From NCBI GenBank assembly GCA_963677925.2, contig CAXXYH010000003.1, forward strand, positions 2,141,823 to 2,205,822: 64,000 nucleotides of DNA, written 5' to 3'. This stretch comes from Spirochaetia bacterium. Its GTDB lineage: Bacteria; Spirochaetota; Spirochaetia; UBA9216. A program made the position numbers and the translations under genes. Below, in pieces: positions 54,677 to 64,000 of the stretch (position 1 is the stretch's first letter; each line of letters starts with the position of its first letter). Below the pieces are notes generated by a model. The model saw only the letters and a program-made list of their open reading frames with translations, ran no database searches and was not told where the DNA came from.

Positions 54677-54711
54677 ACAGGCTGAGGCTTACGCCGGATG
54701 CAGACATGGAG

Positions 54712-54740
54712 ACCGCCCTAAACCACAGGGCGGTTTTTTT
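54712..54740 (+). terminator. intrinsic terminator
   Basis: ACCGCCCT/AGGGCGGT stem followed by a T-run. Confidence 0.85.
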
Positions 54741-54742
54741 AT

Positions 54743-55072
54743 TTATAAATATTTTTTATAGTCTTCACGGGCTTCTGCGAAGACTTCAAGAGCCACAGAG
54801 TCTTCAATGATATCAGCCCTGTGCGAAGCCCCGACCGGAATACACCAGCTGTCGCCGGGCTCAAGATTATGCGGAACCTCATCAATATACAGGATCATAT
54901 TTCCTGAAATCAGGTAACCGGTCTGTTCATAGGTATGTGAGTGCGGAGGCAGAATACTTCCCTTTTCAAGCAGAAATTTGCTCATAAGTGTATTTTCCCC
55001 GTAACAAAGGGTCTGTATGCTTATTCCTTCAATCATTGAATGAAATCCGTCACCCTTATGCTTGCCAATCAT
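54743..55072 (-). CDS. cupin domain protein
   Basis: PPHSH.YEQ.GY and PGDSW.IP....H. Confidence 0.88.
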   Translation of the reverse strand: MIGKHKGDGFHSMIEGISIQTLCYGENTLMSKFLLEKGSILPPHSHTYEQTGYLISGNMILYIDEVPHNLEPGDSWCIPVGASHRADIIEDSVALEVFAEAREDYKKYL

Positions 55073-55112: not shown

Positions 55113-55583
55113 TTACCGGCTTATCCGGTATTCCATGGGATAGTAGATTATGCCGTCCTTCTCTTCACGCCCGCCTGTCAGCTCAAAGCCGAGCCTCTTA
55201 TAAACGGGAAGTGCGAAGGGTGATGAATTAACTGTGATCTTTTTAATCTCAGGATGATGAGAGCGGATGTGTCTCAGGGAAAATGCAAAAAGCATTCTGC
55301 CTACACCTCGATTCTGATAGTCTTTGGAAACAAAGAAGGTCGTGAGATGGCTGATATCCCGGAAAGCTGCCACACCGGCGAATATATCTTCAACCCTTGC
55401 GGCGGCGAAAAATCCTCCCTGCTCAAAGCGTTCGCTTACTGCTGCTTCCTCGAGGTATGAATAAAAGTGGCTGTTGCCCTCATCTGAGTAGTCGGGAGCA
55501 ACAAACTCGTCATAAACGGTTCTAACAAGGCTGCAGAACTCCGGGATTTCCTCTTTTTTTAATTCGGATATTTTTAATTCCAT
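55113..55583 (-). CDS. GNAT family acetyltransferase
   Basis: FFV...YQNRGVGR, TVNSSPFA..VY.RLGF; start at 55583 or 55589. Confidence 0.88.
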   Translation of the reverse strand: MELKISELKKEEIPEFCSLVRTVYDEFVAPDYSDEGNSHFYSYLEEAAVSERFEQGGFFAAARVEDIFAGVAAFRDISHLTTFFVSKDYQNRGVGRMLFAFSLRHIRSHHPEIKKITVNSSPFALPVYKRLGFELTGGREEKDGIIYYPMEYRISR

Positions 55584-55624
55584 GGACATAGACTACGGGA
55601 AAAGGTCTTAAACAGCAACACAGG

Positions 55625-55675
55625 AAAGGGTGTATCAGGTGAATAATTCAGCAGAAACATTCATCTGATACACCC
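55625..55675 (-). terminator. 17-bp hairpin after ridA
   Basis: GGGTGTATCAGGTGAAT (55628-55644) / ATTCATCTGATACACCC (55659-55675), one mismatch; short T tail. Confidence 0.65.
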
Positions 55676-55687
55676 GGAGATTCAAAT

Positions 55688-56062
55688 TCAGCTCTTTTTA
55701 ACAGCAATGGCCTCAATTTCAACAAGCGCCTTTTTAGGAAGCTTTCCGACTTCCACAGCACTTCTTGCCGGATAATCACTTTTAAAATAATTCTGATATA
55801 CTCCGTTCATTTTTGAGAAGTCTTCCATACTGTCAAGAAACACAGTGGTTTTAATTACAGTTTCAAGACTCCCGCCCATCGACTCAAGCACAGCGCTCAG
55901 GTTTTTCAGAGCGGTATCGGTCTGTTCTTCCACTGTTTCAGGCAGGATTCCTGTTTCAGGCTCCATGCCGATCTGTCCTGATGTAAAGATCAGTTTTTCA
56001 AAAGACTGTGCCACAGAATACGGGCCTATGGGCTTTGGGATTTTCGTATTATCACTCATCAA
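55688..56062 (-). CDS. ridA: RidA family enamine/imine deaminase
   Basis: IGPYS, SGQIG, catalytic PARS, VEIEAIA. Confidence 0.92.
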   Translation of the reverse strand: MMSDNTKIPKPIGPYSVAQSFEKLIFTSGQIGMEPETGILPETVEEQTDTALKNLSAVLESMGGSLETVIKTTVFLDSMEDFSKMNGVYQNYFKSDYPARSAVEVGKLPKKALVEIEAIAVKKS

Positions 56063-56074
56063 ATTCCTCCATTA

Positions 56075-57010
56075 TTAATTCTTACTGCACTTTTCCAGTA
56101 TATCATGCCATCTTCTGTCCGTTTCATTCTGAATTTCTTCCAGCAGGTGTTCATTTTCCTTCTGAAAAAGATGACGGAACCGGCCCTGCGGCCTTAGAAA
56201 ATCAACAACAGGAATTTTCTTCTTTGGCTCATAGGTCAGTTTCCAGCGGCCTTCTTCTATTTCAAACATGGGCCACCAGCAGCTGTCGATCGCCAGTTTG
56301 CACATATTCATCATCTGTGATGTTTCATATCGCCAGCCCCTTGGGCAGGGAGCAAGTATATTCATAAAGGCTGCTCCCTTTGTGTAGATTGCCTTTTCAG
56401 ATTTCTCATGAATGTCTTTGAAATTTCCTGTAAATGTTGTCTGTGCAACATAGGGAATATTATGAGCCGCTATAATATCTGTCAGTTCCTTGCGGTTCTG
56501 GTTTTTTCCATCACTGACTGCACCGACAGGAGTGGTAGTCGTATCAGCATAATGAGGTGTAGCAGAGGAACGCTGTATACCGGTATTCATGTATGCGCCG
56601 TTGTCGTAGCAGACATATACCATATCATGATTCCTTTCCATTGCACCGGAGAGAGACTGAAAGCCTATATCATAGGTTCCGCCGTCACCGCCGAAAGTTA
56701 TAAATTTAAAGTCTTTACTTACACGGCCTCTCCGCTTAAGAGCTTTATATGCACCTTCAACACCGCTTACAGTCGCACCGGCATTCTCGAAGGCGTTGTG
56801 AATAAAGGAATCCTTCCATGATGTATACGGATACATAAACGTTGATACTTCAAGACATCCGGTGGCACAGCCTATAACAGCCTTGTCTTCCTGTTTAACT
56901 GCCCTCAACACAGATCTCACAGCAACCGGGGCACCGCAGCCCGCACACATTCTGTGTCCGCCTGCCAGTCTTTCAGGCTTTTTTATAGTTTCCTTAAAAT
57001 TATATGACAT
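56075..57010 (-). CDS. porB: pyruvate/2-oxoacid:ferredoxin oxidoreductase beta subunit
   Basis: GHRMCAGCG, GGDGGTYDIG, YMNTGIQRS, PCPRGW. Confidence 0.94.
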   Translation of the reverse strand: MSYNFKETIKKPERLAGGHRMCAGCGAPVAVRSVLRAVKQEDKAVIGCATGCLEVSTFMYPYTSWKDSFIHNAFENAGATVSGVEGAYKALKRRGRVSKDFKFITFGGDGGTYDIGFQSLSGAMERNHDMVYVCYDNGAYMNTGIQRSSATPHYADTTTTPVGAVSDGKNQNRKELTDIIAAHNIPYVAQTTFTGNFKDIHEKSEKAIYTKGAAFMNILAPCPRGWRYETSQMMNMCKLAIDSCWWPMFEIEEGRWKLTYEPKKKIPVVDFLRPQGRFRHLFQKENEHLLEEIQNETDRRWHDILEKCSKN

Positions 57011-58196
57011 GCTGTCCCCTTAAACTAAGATATCTGAAAATATCAGCTGAACCTGACCCGTCCGCATCCCTGCAAAGGTCTTCAAAAACCGAAACCATGT
57101 CCTGAACCCTGACATCCCTGCCGCCGAGACCGTAAATATAATTAACCGCTTTAGGCCTGCGCTCACTGTCGAACATTGCCGACCTTACTTCGGCAAACAG
57201 CGGACCGCCGGCTCCGGACATTCCTTCACATTTGTCCATAACTGCTACAGCTTTCAGATTACCAAGAGCCTCCCTGATTTCATCAAAGGGAAAGGGCCTG
57301 AAAACCCGTATCTTAAGGAGACCTGCCTTTATTCCGCGGCTGCGCATTTGATCAACAGCAATCTTGGCCGTACCCGCGCTGGAGTTGATAATAACAAGTG
57401 CAACGTCGGCATCGTCGAGCATGTACTCTTCAAAGAAACTGTATTTTCTTCCTGTCAGTTCTTCATACTCAGCTGCTATTTCAAGAATCACATTTTTTGC
57501 GTTCAGCATAGACTGGGCCTGCTGTCTTTTGCTTTCCATATAATAGGCAGAGGTCGCATAGGGTCCGAGTGAAAGGTGTCCTGATTCAGAAAGAAGGAAA
57601 TGTTCCGGGTCATATTCCCGGACAAAGGCCTTTACATCCTCATCCTGAAGCAGTTCAATATTTTCAACCGCATGACTTGTAATGAAACCGTCCTGGCAGA
57701 CCATCACAGGCAGCTGGACATCAGGATGCTCTCCTATCCGTACAGCCTGTATGAGGTTGTCATATGCTTCCTGATTATCTTCCGAGTACAGCTGAATCCA
57801 GCCGGAATCACGGGCTCCCATTGAATCACTGTGATCCGCATTTATATTAATCGGCCCGGAAAGAGCCCTGTTGACACAGGCCATTGTAATTGGGAGTTTC
57901 AGCGAAGCTGCCACATAAAGCATTTCCCACATGAGCGCAAGACCGCAGGATGAAGTGGCCGTCATTGTTCTTGCCCCTGCAGCCTGTGAGCCGATACATG
58001 CGGACATTGCACTGTGCTCTGATTCAACCGGAATAAATTCGGTATCAACCTGCCCGTTTGAAATATATGATGAATAATACTGCGGAATTTCCGTCGAAGG
58101 TGTTATGGGAAATGCGGGTATTACATCCGGATTTATCTGCCGCATTGCTGTTGCTACGGCTTCGTTTCCGGACATTCGTTCCTTAATTGCAGCCAT
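57000..58196 (-). CDS. porA: pyruvate/2-oxoacid:ferredoxin oxidoreductase alpha subunit
   Basis: SGNEAVA, FPITPST, VESEHSAMS, GLGGRD. Confidence 0.94.
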   Translation of the reverse strand: MAAIKERMSGNEAVATAMRQINPDVIPAFPITPSTEIPQYYSSYISNGQVDTEFIPVESEHSAMSACIGSQAAGARTMTATSSCGLALMWEMLYVAASLKLPITMACVNRALSGPININADHSDSMGARDSGWIQLYSEDNQEAYDNLIQAVRIGEHPDVQLPVMVCQDGFITSHAVENIELLQDEDVKAFVREYDPEHFLLSESGHLSLGPYATSAYYMESKRQQAQSMLNAKNVILEIAAEYEELTGRKYSFFEEYMLDDADVALVIINSSAGTAKIAVDQMRSRGIKAGLLKIRVFRPFPFDEIREALGNLKAVAVMDKCEGMSGAGGPLFAEVRSAMFDSERRPKAVNYIYGLGGRDVRVQDMVSVFEDLCRDADGSGSADIFRYLSLRGQHVI

Positions 58197-58498
58197 CAGA
58201 TTTCCTCCTTCTTCATACTCAGTGCAGAAAATGAACAGGCCTCAACACATATTCCGCAGCCCTTGCAGAGGTTTAAATTGAATTCAGGTATATCGTCTCC
58301 TGCAGTAATGACACTGTCCGGACATACAGGGACACAAAGGTGGCAGTTTCTGCATTTTTCCTTATCAAGGAAGGGTTTTATACTGCTCCAGTCTCCGGTT
58401 CTGAAACCGGAGGAATTGCCTCCGCTGTACACCGCTCCGCCCGGTGTTATTTTCTGCCAGGGAACATCCGTTCCGATAAAATCTGTTTCTGTTTTCAT
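58196..58498 (-). CDS. porD: 2-oxoacid:ferredoxin oxidoreductase delta (ferredoxin) subunit
   Basis: TGDWS..P, CxxCxxCxxxCP and CKGCGIC...C. Confidence 0.92.
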   Translation of the reverse strand: MKTETDFIGTDVPWQKITPGGAVYSGGNSSGFRTGDWSSIKPFLDKEKCRNCHLCVPVCPDSVITAGDDIPEFNLNLCKGCGICVEACSFSALSMKKEEI

Positions 58499-58500
58499 TA

Positions 58501-59073
58501 TCAACCCACCTCATTCATTGCGGCTTTCAGCGCCTTCAGATTGCCTTCTATCACCTTTGGTTTTGAGGCAAACTTATGCCTGAAGGATTCTTCCATTTCT
58601 TTTATAAAGGTATTCTCTTCCATAATTCCGCTTACCTTCACGACCGCTGCAAGCATCGGCGTATTCGGGAAGTTTTTTCCAAGGCATTCTGTTGAAATTC
58701 TTGCGGCATCTACTGTGTAGACCCTTCCGCTGTAACCGGCCAGTCTGCCGGAAATCTCATCCGGTTTTTTTTCCGAGTTTATTATAATAGCGCCCCCGGC
58801 TTTAAGTCCGGCGGTAACATCAACGGAATCAAGAAGGCTTTCATCAACCACGACAACAAAATCAGGATTATATATATTTGAGTGAACCCTTATTTTTTCA
58901 CTGCTTATCCTGTTGTATGCCGTAATGGGGGCACCCATCCGCTCCGGGCCGTACTCGGGAAAACCCTGAACATACCTTCCGGTACTGAAGGCTACATCAG
59001 CCAGAAGCAGTGAGGCAGTCTTTGCCCCCTGTCCTCCGCGGCCATGCCACCGTATTTCTGTTAATTCGGACAT
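58501..59073 (-). CDS. porC: 2-oxoacid:ferredoxin oxidoreductase gamma subunit
   Basis: EIRWHGRGGQG, FPEYGPERMGAP; GGAGGAG RBS. Confidence 0.94.
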   Translation of the reverse strand: MSELTEIRWHGRGGQGAKTASLLLADVAFSTGRYVQGFPEYGPERMGAPITAYNRISSEKIRVHSNIYNPDFVVVVDESLLDSVDVTAGLKAGGAIIINSEKKPDEISGRLAGYSGRVYTVDAARISTECLGKNFPNTPMLAAVVKVSGIMEENTFIKEMEESFRHKFASKPKVIEGNLKALKAAMNEVG

Positions 59074-59148
59074 ATTTCTCCTCCGCAATCAGATTATGAT
59101 TACAATCCTGTGAGACTGCTTACATAAGTTTTCTATAGAATTAGCGTC

Positions 59149-60339
59149 TTAAATCAGACTTAATGCATGCTCCAGACTGCCTATAATATCTTCAACATCC
59201 TCAATTCCAACCGAAAGCCTCACCAGACCGTCATCGATACCCATCTTGGCCCGATCTTCAGGTTTCAGCATTCCATGGGTCTGCAGAGGCGGCTGCTGAA
59301 TCATCGTATCGCAGTCGCCGAGACTTACGCAGTATTTAGCTATTTCAACATTGTCGGCAAACTTTGTTGCTTTCGTAAGTCCGCCTTTGACAATAAAAGA
59401 TAGCATACCTCCAAAACCTGCCGCGCCGAATAATTTCTTTGCAAGCTCATGATCAGGGTGGTTTTCCAGTCCGGGGTATTCAACTTTCTCGATTTTTTCA
59501 TGCTTTTCAAGCCATTTAGCAACTATCATTGCGTTCTCGGAATGCTGCCTCATCCTGAGATGGAGAGTTTTCAGCCCTCTGAGCATCAGCCAGCAGCTGA
59601 ACGGGCTGGGTACCGGCCCCAGTTCCTGATAGATTGATGAACGGATTTTATCGACAAAACTGTGCTTTCCAACAATTGCCCCGCCCACAAGGTCTCCGTG
59701 TCCGTTGATATATTTTGTTGTGCTGTGAACTACGACATCAACACCGTGCTCTACAGGACGAATCATGTACGGGGTTGTGAATGTACTGTCTACTATTGAA
59801 ACCAGGTTATTCTTTTTTGCGATGGCGGCGAACATATCAATATCAAGCACTGTCATAGTCGGGTTGGCCATAGTCTCCGCATAAAGAACCTTTGTATTCG
59901 GCCTTAACGCCTTAGCTACAGTTTCTTCATCAATGGTTTCTACAAAACTGACTTCAATCTTCAGTTCTTCAAAGATCTGGGTAAACAGCTTAAAAGATCC
60001 GCTGTAGATGGTTTTGAATGCAATAATATGATCACCGGGATGGGCAACGTTAAGCACAGCAAGTGAAATTGCAGCCATTCCGGAAGCTGTAACCAGACAG
60101 CGCTCCGCTCCTTCCAGTGAAGCAATCTTCTCCTGAAGGTCATTCTGAGTCGGGTTCCTTGATCTCCCGTAGGTAAAGATACCTTCCTTATCTCCTGAGA
60201 TGTACCTGTCACGGGTTTCAGGATCCCAGCAGTATGTACTGGTCATATACATGGGAGCAATCAGAGCTCCTGTCAGCGGGTCTATCTTCTGCCCTGCATG
60301 TACAGCTTTTGTTCCAAATTTCATATTTTCCAATTTCAA
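59149..60339 (-). CDS. Cys/Met-metabolism PLP lyase (methionine/cystathionine gamma-lyase family), divergent
   Basis: ASGMAAI, ETMANPT, HSTTKYINGHGD (PLP Lys), LVRLSVGIE. Confidence 0.9.
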   Translation of the reverse strand: MKLENMKFGTKAVHAGQKIDPLTGALIAPMYMTSTYCWDPETRDRYISGDKEGIFTYGRSRNPTQNDLQEKIASLEGAERCLVTASGMAAISLAVLNVAHPGDHIIAFKTIYSGSFKLFTQIFEELKIEVSFVETIDEETVAKALRPNTKVLYAETMANPTMTVLDIDMFAAIAKKNNLVSIVDSTFTTPYMIRPVEHGVDVVVHSTTKYINGHGDLVGGAIVGKHSFVDKIRSSIYQELGPVPSPFSCWLMLRGLKTLHLRMRQHSENAMIVAKWLEKHEKIEKVEYPGLENHPDHELAKKLFGAAGFGGMLSFIVKGGLTKATKFADNVEIAKYCVSLGDCDTMIQQPPLQTHGMLKPEDRAKMGIDDGLVRLSVGIEDVEDIIGSLEHALSLI

Positions 60340-61400
60340 AGTCCTCTCTTATCGTTAATATTAATCGCAATCTTGATATGGTCAGCTCCGTTTCTGATAA
60401 GCTCCTCAAAACCGTCTTCAACAAGTGTTTCCAGCGTCACAACCCTGGTAATCAGATCATCAGCAGGTATTCTGCCCTCGGAAAAATACTCCAGTGCTGT
60501 ACCTATCTCTTCCACATGGGCCTGTGATGTATACATCCGCCTTTCACCTTCCTGAAAATCATTCATAGGAAAAACAGGGGGCTTCTCAAAAACGCCCATG
60601 ACCATCAGCTGGGCGCCAGGCTTCATAATGCTTATACAGCTGTCCAGAGTCCTCTGTGTTCCGACGCATTCATAAACCACGTCGGCATTACGTCCGTCGG
60701 ACCAGGCGGCAACGGTGTCCTTCAGATCCGCTTTCGCGACATCGGTATAAACACCTCCAAACCCCTCGACAAGGGCCTTCCGCTGCTCACCGACACCGGC
60801 AACCAGAACTCTGCCGGCTCCTGCAAGTTTGGCAGCAAAGAAGCAGCCGATTCCAATTATTCCGGGACCTACAATTACAACGTCCTTCCCTTTGATATCG
60901 CCCAGCAGATTGGTTGAATGGATTCCGCATGCAATCGGTTCAGCCAGAACCGCCTGGCGAAGGCTGACATTTTCCGGAATCCGGAAAAGCCGGGCTGCTT
61001 CCACTTCAACAAACTCTGCAAAAGCCCCGTCAAGGTTAACCCCGAGAAATCCCAGTTTTTCACAGACGTTGTAGCGCCCGCTCAGACACATTTCACATTT
61101 TCCGCAGCAGAGTGTTCCATTAGCTGTTACCCTGTCGTCAACCTTCCAGCCTTCAACACCTTCGCCGACAGCAGAAATAATACCTGTAAATTCATGTCCG
61201 ATAGTAAGAGGAGCAACCTTGCCTGTAAGGCGGTGCGGTTTTTCCACCGGGATAAAGTTGGGGCCCGTGTATTCATGGCGGTCGGTTCCGCAGATACCGG
61301 CCCATGCAACTTCAATAACCACATGTCCGGGTTTCGGGGAAGGTACAGGAACATCTGTGATACGGATATCCTTGTAGCCGTGCCATACTGCAGCTTTCAT
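60336..61400 (-). CDS. Zn-dependent alcohol dehydrogenase (butanediol/polyol dehydrogenase-like)
   Basis: GICGTD.HEY, GHEF, CGKCEMC...C, GPGIIG. Confidence 0.92.
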   Translation of the reverse strand: MKAAVWHGYKDIRITDVPVPSPKPGHVVIEVAWAGICGTDRHEYTGPNFIPVEKPHRLTGKVAPLTIGHEFTGIISAVGEGVEGWKVDDRVTANGTLCCGKCEMCLSGRYNVCEKLGFLGVNLDGAFAEFVEVEAARLFRIPENVSLRQAVLAEPIACGIHSTNLLGDIKGKDVVIVGPGIIGIGCFFAAKLAGAGRVLVAGVGEQRKALVEGFGGVYTDVAKADLKDTVAAWSDGRNADVVYECVGTQRTLDSCISIMKPGAQLMVMGVFEKPPVFPMNDFQEGERRMYTSQAHVEEIGTALEYFSEGRIPADDLITRVVTLETLVEDGFEELIRNGADHIKIAININDKRGL

Positions 61401-62389
61401 TATTCTGCCCCTCCGTCAAAAAAACTACGGTACAGAGACTGAAGAATCCTACCCGGCTTCTGTTCCGTTCCGGTTACAAAATCCTTCGGTAGTTTTTCTT
61501 CCACATACTTCATTGCCCCGTTTATAAAATCTATTGAAGCACGGCAGGCTTCGTCCGGATCATCCCTGTAGGGATAGAGATCAAGCGAGTACCATCCGTC
61601 ATATCCAAGACGGTTCATCCAGTAGAAAAGCTCAAAATACTGAGGCCAGTGTACAGTACCTACCGGCATATCATCATCCGCAATACGGTAGTTATCATTT
61701 ACATGAATATGAAACAGTCTGTTCTGTGCAAACAGTATTGAAGCTACCTCAGCAGGGTTTTCACCTGCATTAAAGGCATGTCCGATATCAAGGGTTATAC
61801 CGACATTCGCACAGCCGGTAGCCTGAGCCGCCGCCAGCGCCATTCCGGCATTTTTAATCATACAGCTCATTTTAGGCTCGGAAACCTTATATTCAATACC
61901 GAGATTTATCTGAGGCTTATGCTGTGCGCACTCTCTAATTGAATCGATAAGATTCTGGTAAGCTTTAACATAGTCGTTCTGAAAAACATAATCAAAAACA
62001 TCCTGACCAAGCCAGAGACAGACTGTTTTCACCCCTGCCTCGACAGCAAAATCCATAGCCTTTTTAACAAGGTTAACTGACTTTGCCCGCCTTTCAGGAT
62101 TCAGTGCTGACAGCGAACCGTCCTTCCATTCCCTGTCGCATACAAGCTCAACACCCATACTCACTATACTTAAATGACACTCTGTAAGAAGAGGTTTTAT
62201 AATATCCCAATTGTCTTCACTGACATCACAGGGATATGTAATCTCTATACCGCTGACACCTTCAAGCTTTGAAACGGCCCTTACCCGATCCTCAAATTTC
62301 ACAGGATCTTTGTAACCTGAACCCACATAGCGGTCGGTTCCCATTCCGTATACCCAGGTCCCGACACTGATTTTAGTTTTCATATCCAA
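61400..62389 (-). CDS. xylose-isomerase-like TIM-barrel sugar isomerase
   Basis: WLGQD..DY.FQ, IEYK..EP, D.GHA, HIHVNDN...DDD. Confidence 0.85.
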   Translation of the reverse strand: MDMKTKISVGTWVYGMGTDRYVGSGYKDPVKFEDRVRAVSKLEGVSGIEITYPCDVSEDNWDIIKPLLTECHLSIVSMGVELVCDREWKDGSLSALNPERRAKSVNLVKKAMDFAVEAGVKTVCLWLGQDVFDYVFQNDYVKAYQNLIDSIRECAQHKPQINLGIEYKVSEPKMSCMIKNAGMALAAAQATGCANVGITLDIGHAFNAGENPAEVASILFAQNRLFHIHVNDNYRIADDDMPVGTVHWPQYFELFYWMNRLGYDGWYSLDLYPYRDDPDEACRASIDFINGAMKYVEEKLPKDFVTGTEQKPGRILQSLYRSFFDGGAE

Positions 62390-62429
62390 TAACCCTTTCC
62401 TGTTTCTTCTTTATTAAGAAATAAATCCC

Positions 62430-63329
62430 TCATCGTAGCAGAATCTCTGCAACCCACGCCGCGCTTGTTCCGACAACCGACGGACACTTGTCAAGGGTAT
62501 GCGCACCGGCCTTTTCAAAGGCTTCCTTATCTTCGGACTTCGTTATATGAAATGCCCGTCCGAAGATTTCGCGGTGGATATCATGACAGGTAACTGTACC
62601 GAATGTATCCATATACTTTTTATGGAGCTTACCGACAAGCTTAGTACAGAGATCTTTCTCTTCCTTGTCTCCGTTAAAAAATTCTTTCCGTCTTCCTGCA
62701 TACATTCCCAGCGACAGAATTCCGCCGCTGTAGCCTCCGCATACACCGTCACCAAGCAGACCCATTCCAGCAGCAAAGCCGTTTGCCGCCCGAAACATAA
62801 CAGGGTCTTCCTTTCCGGTTATGTCGGAAACAGCCGCCATATGACACTGGGCGCATCCATGATAAACGACTTCATACATGAAACCCTTTCGATGAGCTTC
62901 TTTCATAATCTCAACTTTACGAACATCCTGAAGACGGAGATCTGGAAGCACCGTACAGGCTTCAGCTATCATCTGGATAAGTTCACTTTCAAACTTCAGT
63001 CCGCATAGTTTTTTTATGGCGCCCTTTAAATCGCCGCCGTTTTTTAATATGGTCGAGTATTCACTGTCGGATGAAATACCGATCGCTGCTGCAGCCGCTG
63101 TGTAGTAAGGATATTCTCCGGCAAGTCTCAACGCCCTGCCTGCCGCGGCAATTCGTTCCAGCGGACTCATGTTTCCATCTGCCTGAATCAGGCCGGACTT
63201 ATCACCCTCAAGCAGCCGGACTTCCTTTTCTGTCAGAACCAGCAGTTCCGCCCCTTTTTCTCCGGCGACCCCGGAACCGACAAGAGTGTAGGCAATGTCT
63301 CCGATTATTTTTTCCAGCATTGAAATCAT
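62430..63329 (-). CDS. C-GCAxxG-C-C family redox protein with an extra N-terminal domain
   Basis: GCAQC, G.CGGYSGG, FG...C..I, KC..VV. Confidence 0.8.
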   Translation of the reverse strand: MISMLEKIIGDIAYTLVGSGVAGEKGAELLVLTEKEVRLLEGDKSGLIQADGNMSPLERIAAAGRALRLAGEYPYYTAAAAAIGISSDSEYSTILKNGGDLKGAIKKLCGLKFESELIQMIAEACTVLPDLRLQDVRKVEIMKEAHRKGFMYEVVYHGCAQCHMAAVSDITGKEDPVMFRAANGFAAGMGLLGDGVCGGYSGGILSLGMYAGRRKEFFNGDKEEKDLCTKLVGKLHKKYMDTFGTVTCHDIHREIFGRAFHITKSEDKEAFEKAGAHTLDKCPSVVGTSAAWVAEILLR

Positions 63330-63341
63330 CTCCGGGTGAAC

Positions 63342-64000
63342 TTAGTTTTCCGGGTCCAGAAGAACTTTCAGTCCCTTACGTTCTGAAACTGTTCTTAAGG
63401 CCTCATCCCACTTTGAAAGAGGAAATACATGTGAAACTATTGCATCAGTGTTGACCTTTCCAAGCTGCACCAGACGCATGGCTTTATGCCAGGATGTGGG
63501 TATCTGTGCATGAGACCCCTGAACTGTCAGTTCCTTCTTTTTTATATTATGAAAGTCAATTGTAATATCACTGTTAAAAATACCCATTGGAACAAAGGTT
63601 CCACGCCTGGCCACAATTTCAAGCGCCAGTGAGACTGCGGCTGTAGAACCTGTGGCTTCAACAACAACGTCAGCTCCGTATCCCTCTGTTACTTCTTTTA
63701 CAATTTTCATTACATCATCTGTCTGAACATCAACGACCCGGTCGATTCCAAGTGATAGAGCCAAATCGAGCCTGGATCTGTCCGAGGTTGTGCCTCCGAC
63801 AATTACAAAGGCGCCCTGAGCTTTTGCAACCTGGGCGGCAAACAAACCGATCGGGCCCGGGCCAAGAATGACAACAACACTGCCGACGTTAACAACTGTT
63901 CTTTCAGTCAGTGCATGAACTCCGCAGGCCAGGGGCTCAATACAGGCGCCCTGATCAAAAGTAAGATCATCAGGAAGAGGCATGATACTCTCAGCCCGGT
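63342..64000 (-). CDS. Zn-dependent alcohol dehydrogenase (5' end outside the window)
   Basis: IEPLACGVHA, GPGPIGL, GADVVVEATG, KVLL.P. Confidence 0.9.
   Translation of the reverse strand, partial: RAESIMPLPDDLTFDQGACIEPLACGVHALTERTVVNVGSVVVILGPGPIGLFAAQVAKAQGAFVIVGGTTSDRSRLDLALSLGIDRVVDVQTDDVMKIVKEVTEGYGADVVVEATGSTAAVSLALEIVARRGTFVPMGIFNSDITIDFHNIKKKELTVQGSHAQIPTSWHKAMRLVQLGKVNTDAIVSHVFPLSKWDEALRTVSERKGLKVLLDPEN

Follow-up and report, generated by a model that had tools for sequence, protein, structure and literature searches.

A Widespread Gene Cluster with a Remodelled Methionine Gamma-Lyase-Like Enzyme and a Putative Role in the Catabolism of Pentose– or Pentitol–Amino Acid Conjugates

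Results

Gene Organization of the Cluster

A gene cluster at positions 55688–64000 (minus strand) was analysed in a 64,000-nucleotide stretch of the genome of a Spirochaetia bacterium (assembly GCA_963677925.2); this whole stretch is termed the window. The cluster joined sugar enzymes to a pyridoxal phosphate (PLP)-dependent lyase and a 2-oxoacid-oxidizing enzyme, and it is a candidate catabolic operon for a sugar–amino acid conjugate. The genes were identified via open reading frame calling and scans of the window proteins with Pfam and NCBIfam models. The features are given below in the order of transcription.

63342–63998, minus strand: ADH1, zinc-dependent alcohol/polyol dehydrogenase (ADH), C-terminal 218 residues, cut by the window end (PF00107, 5.8e-30)
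62430–63329, minus strand: C_GCAxxG_C_C family protein, 299 residues (PF09719, 4.9e-22, residues 159–296)
61400–62389, minus strand: xylose isomerase (XI)-like TIM barrel, 329 residues (PF01261, 5.5e-28)
60336–61400, minus strand: ADH2, zinc-dependent polyol-type dehydrogenase (PF08240 and PF00107)
59149–60339, minus strand: Cys_Met_Meta_PP PLP-dependent lyase of a distinct "RSR" subfamily (PF01053, 2.6e-138)
58501–59088, minus strand: porC, 2-oxoacid:ferredoxin oxidoreductase (Por) gamma subunit (PF01558; TIGR02175, 216.8 vs. cut-off 81.1)
58196–58504, minus strand: porD, delta subunit, ferredoxin-type with two [4Fe-4S] clusters (Fer4 families; TIGR02179, 83.7 vs. cut-off 60.05)
57000–58196, minus strand: porA, alpha subunit (PF01855 and PF17147)
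56075–57010, minus strand: porB, beta subunit, thiamine pyrophosphate type (PF02775; NF008819, 349.3, under the cut-off of 405)
55688–56062, minus strand: ridA, enamine/imine deaminase (PF01042, 1.5e-37; TIGR00004, 146.7 vs. cut-off 106.25)
55628–55675, minus strand: stem-loop 3' of ridA (−29.3 kcal/mol, z −5.63, 0 of 200 shuffles as stable; partly U-rich tail)

The ten genes were all co-oriented on the minus strand, and every gene that the initial annotation had named was found. The overlaps that it had reported at the isomerase, ADH and lyase genes were real: the TIM barrel and ADH2 genes shared one base (61400), and the ADH2 stop overlapped the lyase start by 4 nt. The por genes also overlapped, by 4 nt for porC/porD, 1 nt for porD/porA and 11 nt for porA/porB. 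Gaps of at most about 75 nt had been claimed, and the widest gap measured was the 60-nt spacer between the lyase gene and porC (59089–59148). This spacer had no significant structure (z −0.28; 73 of 200 shuffles folded equally well), and the terminator scan gave no terminator-like site on its minus strand. The only hairpin of the ten-gene stretch was thus located past ridA, as described previously, and it is likely a terminator or an attenuator.

The window is the final 64 kb of contig C3, and the genome consists of four contigs (5.04 Mb). The upstream part of the cluster had been placed outside the window and was found on the next contig, C4. Fifteen identical bases were present at the end of C3 and at the beginning of C4 (window 63985–64000; C4:1–15), and the missing part of ADH1 followed directly.

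C4:2–403: N-terminal 134 residues of ADH1 (PF08240)

When read across the joint, ADH1 had 348 residues and could be aligned without gaps to the intact orthologue of locus L071, the closest relative, with 86.6% identity. Because the contig ends share 15 bases and ADH1 reads through intact, the break is taken to be an assembly artefact and not a disrupted gene. Going upstream on the same strand, C4 carried genes for an FGGY sugar kinase, LivF-, LivG-, LivM- and LivH-type proteins, a Peripla_BP_6 protein and a SorC/DeoR-type regulator. The kinase had 493 residues, and its top NCBIfam model was XylB (xylulokinase; 283.7, under the cut-off of 380.25). The regulator had a sugar-binding domain and was of the sugar-phosphate type. 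A divergent radA gene was located beyond it. The unit accordingly appears to comprise about 17 genes, of which the window holds the downstream two thirds and C4 seven further genes. A transporter and a regulator had been sought among the upstream genes, and both were present, namely, a five-gene LivKHMGF-type importer and the SorC/DeoR-type regulator, together with the kinase. This mixture of a regulator, an amino-acid importer and a sugar kinase matches the prediction of a sugar–amino acid conjugate as the substrate.

Conservation and Synteny

The conservation of the cluster was explored by a lyase-based scan of one genome per prokaryote species, which gave 80 loci, and all 19 cluster proteins were compared with these by tblastn. 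A second scan, in which metagenome contigs were searched with an alignment of the lyase subfamily, gave 80 more loci. The subfamily was defined by the lid signature TY[GA]RSRNP, which occurred in 51 loci (14 genomic and 37 metagenomic). L018, a 6-kb contig with a partial lyase whose N-terminus was missing, was used neither for the alignments nor for the signature set. Loci that extended at least 7 kb upstream and at least 2.5 kb downstream of the lyase are termed long (n = 24). The synteny table was built on the tblastn matches.

The initial annotation had proposed the neighbourhood of the lyase as a check. Sugar genes surrounded the lyase at 15 of 15 genome loci in which the enzyme was 57–86% identical to that of the window, whereas the 65 loci at which this identity was 52% or lower gave no tblastn match to the zinc-dependent ADHs, the FGGY kinase or the TIM barrel. 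Judged by the titles of the records, the 15 loci belonged to Spirochaetia, Oscillospiraceae and other Bacillota, Tepidanaerobacteraceae, Thermovenabulum, Chloroflexota (Leptolinea, Ornatilinea and an uncultured Chloroflexia bacterium) and Holophagaceae; at the phylum level, these are four groups (Spirochaetia, Bacillota, Chloroflexota and Acidobacteriota). The gene directly upstream of the lyase encoded a polyol-type ADH in 36 of the 44 assessable signature loci, and the remaining neighbours were class II aldolase-family genes (four), 2-hydroxyacid dehydrogenase genes (two), LivF (one) and a binding protein (one). Directly downstream, an FGGY kinase gene was found in 29 of 41 signature loci; porC (five), an aldolase-family gene (four), an E1 subunit gene (one), a reversed TIM gene (one) or nothing (one) occurred in the others. 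The 24 long loci contained FGGY in 24 cases, LivG in 23, an aldolase-family gene in 20, ADH in 20, TIM in 17, a binding protein in 17 and SorC in 16. According to these counts, the importer, the lyase and the kinase appear to form the invariant core, which is nearly always accompanied by a polyol-type ADH and a class II aldolase-family gene. This arrangement is not due to chance, because it recurs in 51 loci of other genomes and metagenomes.

The Lyase Subfamily

The closest solved structures to the lyase were methionine gamma-lyases (MGLs; EC 4.4.1.11), with 368 bits to the enzyme of Citrobacter freundii, and the lyase was approximately 45% identical to true MGLs. It scored below every NCBIfam equivalog cut-off (TIGR01328, the MGL model, 419.8 vs. 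549.7; NF004876, 411.3 vs. 666). The O-acetylhomoserine sulfhydrylase models scored nearly as high as the MGL model (396.7 vs. 419.8).

The 15 orthologues were aligned with 63 more distant family members, and the residues were numbered after the Citrobacter sequence among the loci. In MGL, residues 46–61 form a mobile N-terminal segment of the adjacent subunit that carries Tyr58 and Arg60; in the C. freundii enzyme this segment becomes ordered upon ligand binding and closes over the active site (PMC9307983). The catalytic set Tyr58, Arg60, Tyr113, Asp185, Lys210 (the PLP lysine), Ser339 and Arg374 was invariant in all orthologues and in the outgroup. The following replacements were common to all 15 orthologues. 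Cys115, which was retained in 43 of the 63 outgroup sequences, was replaced by Gly. This residue (Cys116 in Pseudomonas putida), near Tyr113, is taken here to be a hallmark of MGL. In the lid, Ile57 was replaced by Thr, Leu61 by Ser and Gly62 by Arg, Arg48 was replaced by Tyr, and one residue was inserted after Gly55; position 49 was Leu, Met or Ile. Further replacements were Lys239 to Gln, Asp240 to Glu, Leu336 to Tyr and Ser356 to Gly. Phe49, Ile57 and Leu61 presumably touch the methylthio (S-methyl) group in MGL. The lyase pocket therefore seems to have shifted from hydrophobic to polar with an added arginine, which agrees with a distal group that bears hydroxyls or a phosphate but not with a methyl group.

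With regard to the MGLs of C. freundii and P. putida, the lyase shares the PF01053 fold and the catalytic residues, and its expected products would be a 2-oxoacid, ammonia and a leaving thiol. It differs from them in the score below the equivalog cut-off, in the residues at positions 115, 239, 240, 336 and 356, in the polar lid with its insertion, and in being always embedded in sugar genes, which none of the 65 distant MGL-like loci had. An ordinary MGL, the case that the initial annotation had set against its own proposal, does not agree with the low score, the loss of the MGL cysteine and the remodelled lid; the enzyme is better regarded as a subfamily of its own. In a quick tree, 42 signature-bearing lyases were on one side of a branch (support 76) and 65 other lyases were on the opposite side. 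At least 120 protein clusters with at least 57% identity to the lyase were present in a large protein collection, and their labels were generic or borrowed ("PLP-dependent transferase," "methionine-gamma-lyase" and "cystathionine gamma-lyase"). The cultured carriers included Tepidanaerobacter acetatoxydans Re1, Thermovenabulum gondwanense and Ornatilinea apprima.

Two further loci, L017 (742–11188) and L038 (85–11152), had lyases approximately 50% identical to that of the window, with a hydrophobic lid (Phe57, Met61 and Gly62), beside Liv-type importers. The partner genes at one locus encoded a long Fe-ADH, a DUF6282 amidohydrolase and a D-Glu-cyclase-like protein, and those at the other an ATC-hydrolase-like protein and the dihydroxyacetone kinase subunits Dak1 and Dak2. 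These loci perhaps represent a sister pathway for a three-carbon (glyceryl) conjugate.

The Importer and the Amino-Acid Side of the Substrate

The importer was of the LivJ/K (HAAT) type and consisted of the Peripla_BP_6 protein, two BPD_transp_2 permeases and LivG/LivF-type ATPases. The top NCBIfam models were LivK, LivH, LivM, LivG and LivF, all with scores under the equivalog cut-offs, and the top PDB match of the binding protein was a branched-chain amino-acid binding protein (3td9). The binding proteins of 22 clusters were aligned to LivJ and LivK of Escherichia coli. In LivJ, S79, A100, T102, Y202 and E226 are assumed to bind the ligand through its alpha-amino and alpha-carboxylate groups. 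Ser79 was retained in 22 of 22 proteins and Ala100 in 21 of 22; position 102 was Ser or Thr in all 22, and Glu226 was replaced by Asp in all 22. Tyr202 was not retained (Ile, Thr or Leu), and Y150, likewise counted as a head-group position, was retained. At Leu77 and Phe276, which we take to be side-chain pocket positions, Asn was found in 22 of 22 proteins and Glu in 21 of 22 (Asp in the remaining one), respectively. The importer and the lyase thus appear to show the same shift from hydrophobic to polar. We infer that the cluster acts on an amino acid whose side chain carries a polar, possibly anionic, distal group. That it is an amino acid is indicated by the Liv-type importer, the polar-amino-acid ABC importer in two loci, the retention of Arg374, Lys210, Tyr113 and Asp185 in the lyase, and the LivJ head-group positions, which are mostly kept.

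The transport genes varied in some loci that shared the lyase signature. L138 (2–12630) and L143 had the same layout, in which a PucR regulator, two M20 peptidases and the polar-amino-acid ABC importer took the place of SorC and Liv. Genes for a C_GCAxxG_C_C protein, an RND efflux pump and an M20 peptidase were found in L100 (2401–20365) and L119 along with three Amidohydro_3 genes, and no ABC importer was in view. The peptidases and amidohydrolases of these variant loci point to possible N-acylated or peptide-bound forms of the substrate in some organisms.

The Sugar Branch

The top PDB match of ADH2 was (R,R)-butanediol dehydrogenase (6ie0, 210 bits), followed by threonine and sorbitol dehydrogenases, i.e., the polyol-dehydrogenase group. 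The TIM barrel matched an uncharacterised "xylose isomerase" best (3ktc, 162 bits) and then xylose and rhamnose isomerases, and it could be aligned to true xylose isomerase via the E-x-K, G-H, H-I-x and D-x-D motifs. It is a putative metal-dependent aldose–ketose isomerase rather than an epimerase. In a quick tree of 33 cluster kinases and seven E. coli FGGY references on long branches, the cluster kinases formed one clade (support 99), which was sister (support 90) to the E. coli L-xylulokinase LyxK and a paralogue from the window genome.

The class II aldolase-family genes of the related clusters formed two clades, one on the AraD/SgbE/UlaF side and one on the FucA side. The AraD-side gene usually followed the kinase, and the FucA-side gene was usually paired with a 2-hydroxyacid dehydrogenase; the aldolases of L005 and L007 exceeded the FucA NCBIfam cut-off. 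According to Pfam, no class II aldolase/epimerase gene was present among the 19 genes of the window's own cluster. Eight class II aldolase-family matches occurred elsewhere in the same genome. The one closest to the aldolase-family gene of the clusters (57–58%) was located in a separate operon (C4:1527728–1531691, minus strand; L172:5729–9692) that consisted of the class II aldolase-family (AldII) gene, a 277-residue TIM barrel, an FGGY kinase and a SorC regulator. This operon adjoined a sigma-54 two-component pair and a sugar ABC importer, and its kinase grouped with the E. coli L-xylulokinase. It may supply the epimerase/aldolase step to the window cluster.

One fixed isomerase–kinase–aldolase route for all clusters was ruled out by the two aldolase clades and by the loci without TIM or ADH genes. 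An analogy with tetritol enzymes via LerI was dropped, since LerI is a TpiA homologue and not a class II aldolase (PMC10733421). On the basis of the LyxK-sister kinase, the AraD-side genes, the XI motifs in the TIM barrel and the polyol-type ADH2, the sugar is most likely a pentose or pentitol that would be turned into a 2-ketopentose and phosphorylated, with later steps dependent on the lineage.

The Keto-Acid Branch

PorCDAB was complete in its domains (POR, two Fer4, POR_N with PFOR_II, and TPP_enzyme_C). Its subunit set, order and domains were those of four-subunit PorCDAB/VorCDAB enzymes, and the gamma and delta subunits passed their subfamily models, whereas the alpha and beta subunits were below the pyruvate-specific equivalog cut-offs (480.6 vs. 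550 and 349.3 vs. 405, respectively). PorA was 66–85% identical among the Por-bearing clusters vs. 28% to the best paralogue in its own genome, which indicates that the por genes travel with the cluster as an extra paralogue. Furthermore, porC was 69–77% identical to the cluster-linked porC of Spirochaetia and Bacillota loci. Two large pyruvate:ferredoxin oxidoreductases (PFORs) were encoded in the same genome besides the cluster Por.

Some 2-oxoacid enzyme was present in 21 of the 24 long loci. The kinds were a D-2-hydroxyacid dehydrogenase of the glyoxylate-reductase/phosphoglycerate-dehydrogenase type, which adjoined the aldolase gene (14 loci), four-subunit Por (six), large PFOR (four), a 2-oxoacid dehydrogenase complex (two) and acetohydroxyacid synthase with its small subunit (two). 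Por directly followed the lyase in five of the six long loci that had it, and the lyase–porCDAB order was the same in Spirochaetia and Bacillota loci. RidA was found in three of the 24 (L071, L108 and L124). An amino-acid branch through RidA and Por had been proposed in the initial annotation; the idea of a linked keto-acid step held broadly, but Por itself occurred in six of 24 loci and RidA in three. Por and RidA are accordingly regarded as accessory parts and not as the core. At the Bacillota loci L010 (14433–19082) and L011 (14445–16214), the cluster closed with the large and small subunits of acetohydroxyacid synthase.

Sulfur Genes

A CoA-disulfide reductase fused to rhodanese was encoded in six loci. 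A further candidate, at L009, was the E3 subunit of a 2-oxoacid dehydrogenase complex and was not counted. C_GCAxxG_C_C genes occurred in 13 loci by tblastn and in one more by Pfam, and they followed ADH1 in 12 of the 13. The window protein had an N-terminal extension of approximately 158 residues with no Pfam match, and the protein had no PDB relative; the orthologues in Thermovenabulum and Tepidanaerobacteraceae were 174–179 residues long and lacked the extension. It is a putative redox-active thiol protein. In the titles and abstracts of the open-access literature searched, no function was assigned to "GCAxxG" proteins.

Discussion

Proposed Pathway

The cluster may be a catabolic operon for a pentose– or pentitol–amino acid conjugate, probably with a thioether link like that of S-ribosylhomocysteine; the probability of this reading is put at roughly 50%. 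The conjugate had been suggested in the initial annotation, and the upstream genes, the neighbourhoods of the lyase and the non-MGL character of the enzyme lend it support at the level of sequence. From the observed gene content, the conservation of the cluster and the altered pockets of the lyase and the binding protein, we infer the substrate, the step order and every reaction as follows. The operon would be controlled by the SorC-type repressor, and the LivKHMGF-type importer would take up an alpha-amino acid with a five-carbon sugar or polyol on its side chain. Most likely, the two halves would be joined by a thioether, as in compounds of the S-ribosyl-L-homocysteine or S-pentosyl-methionine type that are left from the turnover of S-adenosylmethionine. 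The lyase, with its polar, arginine-bearing lid, would cut the bond between amino acid and sugar by alpha,gamma-elimination (or alpha,beta-elimination). The freed enamine would be hydrolysed with the aid of RidA to 2-oxobutyrate (or pyruvate) and ammonia, and the dedicated PorCDAB would convert the keto acid to an acyl-CoA and reduced ferredoxin. The sugar half would be turned into a 2-ketopentose by the polyol-type ADHs and the XI-like isomerase and phosphorylated by the L-xylulokinase-related kinase. A class II aldolase or 4-epimerase, encoded in most related clusters and elsewhere in the present genome, would lead it into central metabolism. The thiol product would be handled by the C_GCAxxG_C_C protein and, in some relatives, by the CoA-disulfide reductase–rhodanese protein.

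PLP enzymes of the Cys/Met family usually expel thiolates. A thioether link is favoured because of this leaving-group preference and the presence of CoA-disulfide reductase–rhodanese and C_GCAxxG_C_C genes. To our knowledge, S-ribosyl-L-homocysteine is the only widespread natural amino acid that carries a pentose through sulfur, and we know of no route that cleaves it other than LuxS/Lsr. No non-LuxS breakdown route was found in the open-access literature searched. S-pentosylmethionines form by hydrolysis of S-adenosylmethionine, and a 2018 review describes their fate as unexplored (PMC6302742). If the aldehyde of a 5-substituted D-ribose were reduced and C4 oxidised, a 1-substituted L-ribulose would result; this compound would need an L-pentulose kinase and an L-ribulose-5-phosphate 4-epimerase, which are the affinities seen among the cluster enzymes. 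A more specific proposal can be formulated along these lines, i.e., a LuxS-independent, widespread route for S-pentosyl amino acids (S-ribosylhomocysteine and S-pentosylmethionines). In such a route, the lyase would cut the C-gamma–S bond, and the carbon of homocysteine would pass through 2-oxobutyrate to propionyl-CoA by means of the dedicated Por. The 5-thio- or 5-substituted ribose would be renumbered by reduction and oxidation to a 1-substituted L-pentulose, and phosphorylation at C5 and 4-epimerisation would yield a 1-thio analogue of deoxyxylulose 5-phosphate. The sulfur would be disposed of by the C_GCAxxG_C_C and CoA-disulfide reductase–rhodanese proteins. As one joint claim, this route is tentative and, taken whole, doubtful.

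The presence of LuxS, AhcY and Pfs was compared across genomes. LuxS was absent from the window genome, and it was absent in five of the six cluster genomes tested and present in one. AhcY was found in five of five cluster genomes tested, and nucleosidase-like genes were present. This profile is uninformative about the pathway. Given the recycling of S-adenosylhomocysteine by AhcY and the absence of LuxS, the pathway would serve scavenging and not housekeeping.

Several points weigh against the proposed conjugate pathway. No gene of the cluster identifies the sugar or the type of link, and most loci lack genes for sulfur handling. The window cluster has no aldolase/epimerase of its own, the best match being in a separate sugar operon, and the aldolase-family genes of its relatives belong to two unrelated clades (FucA side and AraD side). 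TIM is missing in seven and ADH in four of the 24 long loci. PFOR, the pyruvate-dehydrogenase-like complex and acetolactate synthase are classical pyruvate users; beta-elimination of a Ser or Cys conjugate is therefore as likely as gamma-elimination of a homocysteine conjugate, and the closeness of the lyase to gamma-lyases pulls in the opposite direction. The branch that unites the lyase subfamily has moderate support (76). Moreover, the genome recycles S-adenosylhomocysteine by AhcY, and the pathway is not needed for its own metabolism.

Alternative Explanations

Alternatively, the link might be through oxygen, as in O-glycosyl- or O-pentityl-serine or -homoserine (e.g., xylosyl-serine-type stubs of glycoproteins). 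The lyase would then free an ordinary pentose or pentitol together with pyruvate or 2-oxobutyrate, and the sugar would follow the standard route through an isomerase or polyol dehydrogenase, a kinase and an epimerase. RidA acts on 2-aminoacrylate, the linked 2-oxoacid enzymes are typical pyruvate users, and, if it received a free pentose or pentitol, the sugar module (polyol ADH, XI-like isomerase, L-xylulokinase-related kinase and AraD-side genes) would amount to a complete pathway of known type. However, an alkoxide is a poor leaving group, and the known members of the family expel thiols, acyl or phosphoryl groups. The CoA-disulfide reductase–rhodanese and C_GCAxxG_C_C genes would be left unexplained, and, to judge by the record titles, the carriers came from sludge, sediment, hot-spring and subsurface samples, where glycoprotein stubs are no obvious major substrate. 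An O-linked conjugate is thus considered unlikely. A polyhydroxylated alpha-amino acid, i.e., a carbon-linked amino sugar acid and no conjugate, is quite unlikely. The FGGY kinase would phosphorylate its terminal hydroxyl, the arginine of the lyase lid would bind the phosphate, and the lyase would remove a hydroxyl or phosphate from the beta or gamma position; the keto-deoxy acid so formed would be processed by ADH, TIM, the class II aldolase and the 2-hydroxyacid dehydrogenase. The invariant new arginine of the lid, the adjacency of lyase and kinase genes (29 of 41 loci) and the D-2-hydroxyacid dehydrogenase beside the aldolase gene (14 of 24) agree with such a substrate, and the kinase gave 153 bits against FGGY gluconokinase. 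TIM and the aldolase also matched the 2-oxo-tetronate isomerase and 3-oxo-tetronate-phosphate decarboxylase families, but these scores were far under the cut-offs (36.9 vs. 325 and 82–106 vs. 250). Furthermore, no genes of the 2-keto-3-deoxygluconate kinase or 2-keto-3-deoxy-6-phosphogluconate aldolase type were present, the sugar enzymes were closest to the neutral-pentulose enzymes LyxK, AraD and XI, and the elimination of a hydroxyl is unusual in this fold subfamily.

The operon might also combine two independent functions, namely, the import of methionine or homocysteine followed by its gamma-lysis (with Por and RidA) and the catabolism of a free pentitol or pentose, with no conjugate involved. 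Each module consists of families that function on their own elsewhere, the lyase shares about 45% identity with true MGLs, and the sole importer in the cluster is of an amino-acid type. Such a coincidence is improbable, however, as in four phyla the lyase gene is flanked by ADH2 and the kinase gene, with stop codons overlapping start codons, and sugar genes were found at none of the 65 ordinary MGL-like loci. The hydrophobic residues expected in a pocket for methionine or leucine have also been lost from both the lyase and the binding protein, and the cluster has no sugar-type transporter. Salvage of sulfur from a thio-sugar such as 5-methylthioribose is very improbable. After reduction, oxidation, phosphorylation and 4-epimerisation, a 1-thio-substituted xylulose 5-phosphate would be formed, and the PLP enzyme would be a sulfhydrylase, which would use the released thiol to regenerate homocysteine or methionine. 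The near-equal scores of the O-acetylhomoserine sulfhydrylase and MGL models (396.7 vs. 419.8) and the cupin genes at 54743–55072 of the window and in L012 would suit it. It resembles the methylthioadenosine–isoprenoid shunt of Rhodospirillum, for which the review describes a 1-methylthio-xylulose-5-phosphate intermediate and a thiol-needing cupin methylsulfurylase (PMC6302742). However, no RuBisCO-like protein was seen in the loci annotated, and the genome has a separate O-acetylhomoserine-sulfhydrylase-like gene. Both kinds of importer seen with the cluster are amino-acid types, and such salvage would have no use for the 2-oxoacid-consuming enzymes present in 21 of 24 loci.

Comparison with Known Pathways

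The proposed degradation of a pentose– or pentitol–amino acid conjugate shares the isomerase–kinase–class II aldolase logic of the dihydroxyacetone phosphate shunt (MtnK–MtnA–Ald2, for 5-deoxyribose and 5-methylthioribose) and of the L-fucose and L-rhamnose pathways. In the shunt, as outlined in a preprint, a 5-substituted pentose from the use of S-adenosylmethionine is isomerised, phosphorylated and cleaved by the aldolase, after which an ADH reduces the aldehyde (bioRxiv 10.1101/2023.08.10.552779). The FucA-type class II aldolases of L005 and L007, above the cut-off, are a further likeness. The differences are that the cluster kinase is of the FGGY and not the MtnK type, that the isomerase is XI-like and not of the MtnA type, and that no other kinase or isomerase family occurs among the 19 genes; the aldolase is absent from the window cluster but present in 20 of 24 long related loci. 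The shunt itself has no amino-acid importer, PLP lyase or 2-oxoacid enzyme.

The E. coli L-xylulose/L-ribulose route (LyxK–SgbU–SgbE, AraB–AraD and UlaE–UlaF) is similar in that the cluster kinases were placed as sister to LyxK in the quick tree with seven references and that AraD, SgbE and UlaF fall inside one clade of the linked aldolase-family genes. The separate AldII–TIM–FGGY–SorC operon of the window genome is of the same type. In contrast, the cluster TIM barrel (329 residues) is XI-like, with matches to the SgbU/UlaE models at E-values of 1e-8 or weaker, the clusters include a second, FucA-side aldolase clade, and the known routes take free sugars or ascorbate and not amino acids. The SorC-family regulator and the FGGY kinase recall LsrR and LsrK of the LuxS/Lsr system. 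However, the window genome has no LuxS, the Lsr models scored low (139 vs. 486 for LsrR and 104.5 vs. 528 for LsrK), E. coli LsrK lies outside the cluster kinase clade, no LsrF or LsrG homologues occur in the cluster, and the importer family differs.

All parts of the cluster are from known families and each step has precedents. Their combination, namely, an amino-acid importer, an MGL-like lyase with a remodelled pocket, enzymes of pentulose metabolism and a 2-oxoacid enzyme that travels with the cluster, was not found in the open-access literature searched. If the proposed pathway is correct, a function would be provided for a lyase subfamily that counts at least 120 sequence clusters in public data under the names "methionine gamma-lyase" or "PLP-dependent transferase," for a clade of FGGY kinases and for the uncharacterised C_GCAxxG_C_C family. 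A group of "branched-chain amino acid" ABC importers would probably not carry branched-chain amino acids. The pathway would also help explain how anaerobic fermenters of sediments, digesters and the subsurface recycle sulfur-containing sugar–amino acids. It is directly testable, with three cultured carriers and proteins that are all of soluble-enzyme size.

Cluster Margins and Neighbouring Genes

At L010, a large serine recombinase gene came next after the acetohydroxyacid synthase genes, and its position at the end of the cluster suggests that the cluster can sit on a mobile element. In the Chloroflexota-type clusters L014, L015, L103 and L112, a divergent second SorC-type regulator and a zinc-dependent ADH were located upstream of the main operon, within the first ~2 kb. 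This ADH was 36% identical to the N-terminal part of ADH1. At L109, only the ADH of the divergent pair was visible, at the contig start.

Past the ridA hairpin of the window, the following features were found.

55113–55589, minus strand: GNAT acetyltransferase, co-oriented (PF13673, 4.4e-34)
54743–55072, minus strand: small cupin protein, co-oriented (PF07883, 1.2e-12)
54708–54738: second strong hairpin, 3' of the cupin gene (folding scan)

Whether the GNAT and cupin genes belong to the cluster is uncertain. A GNAT gene occupied the same place only in the relative L071, with 60% identity, and the cupin gene within L012 was a different one.

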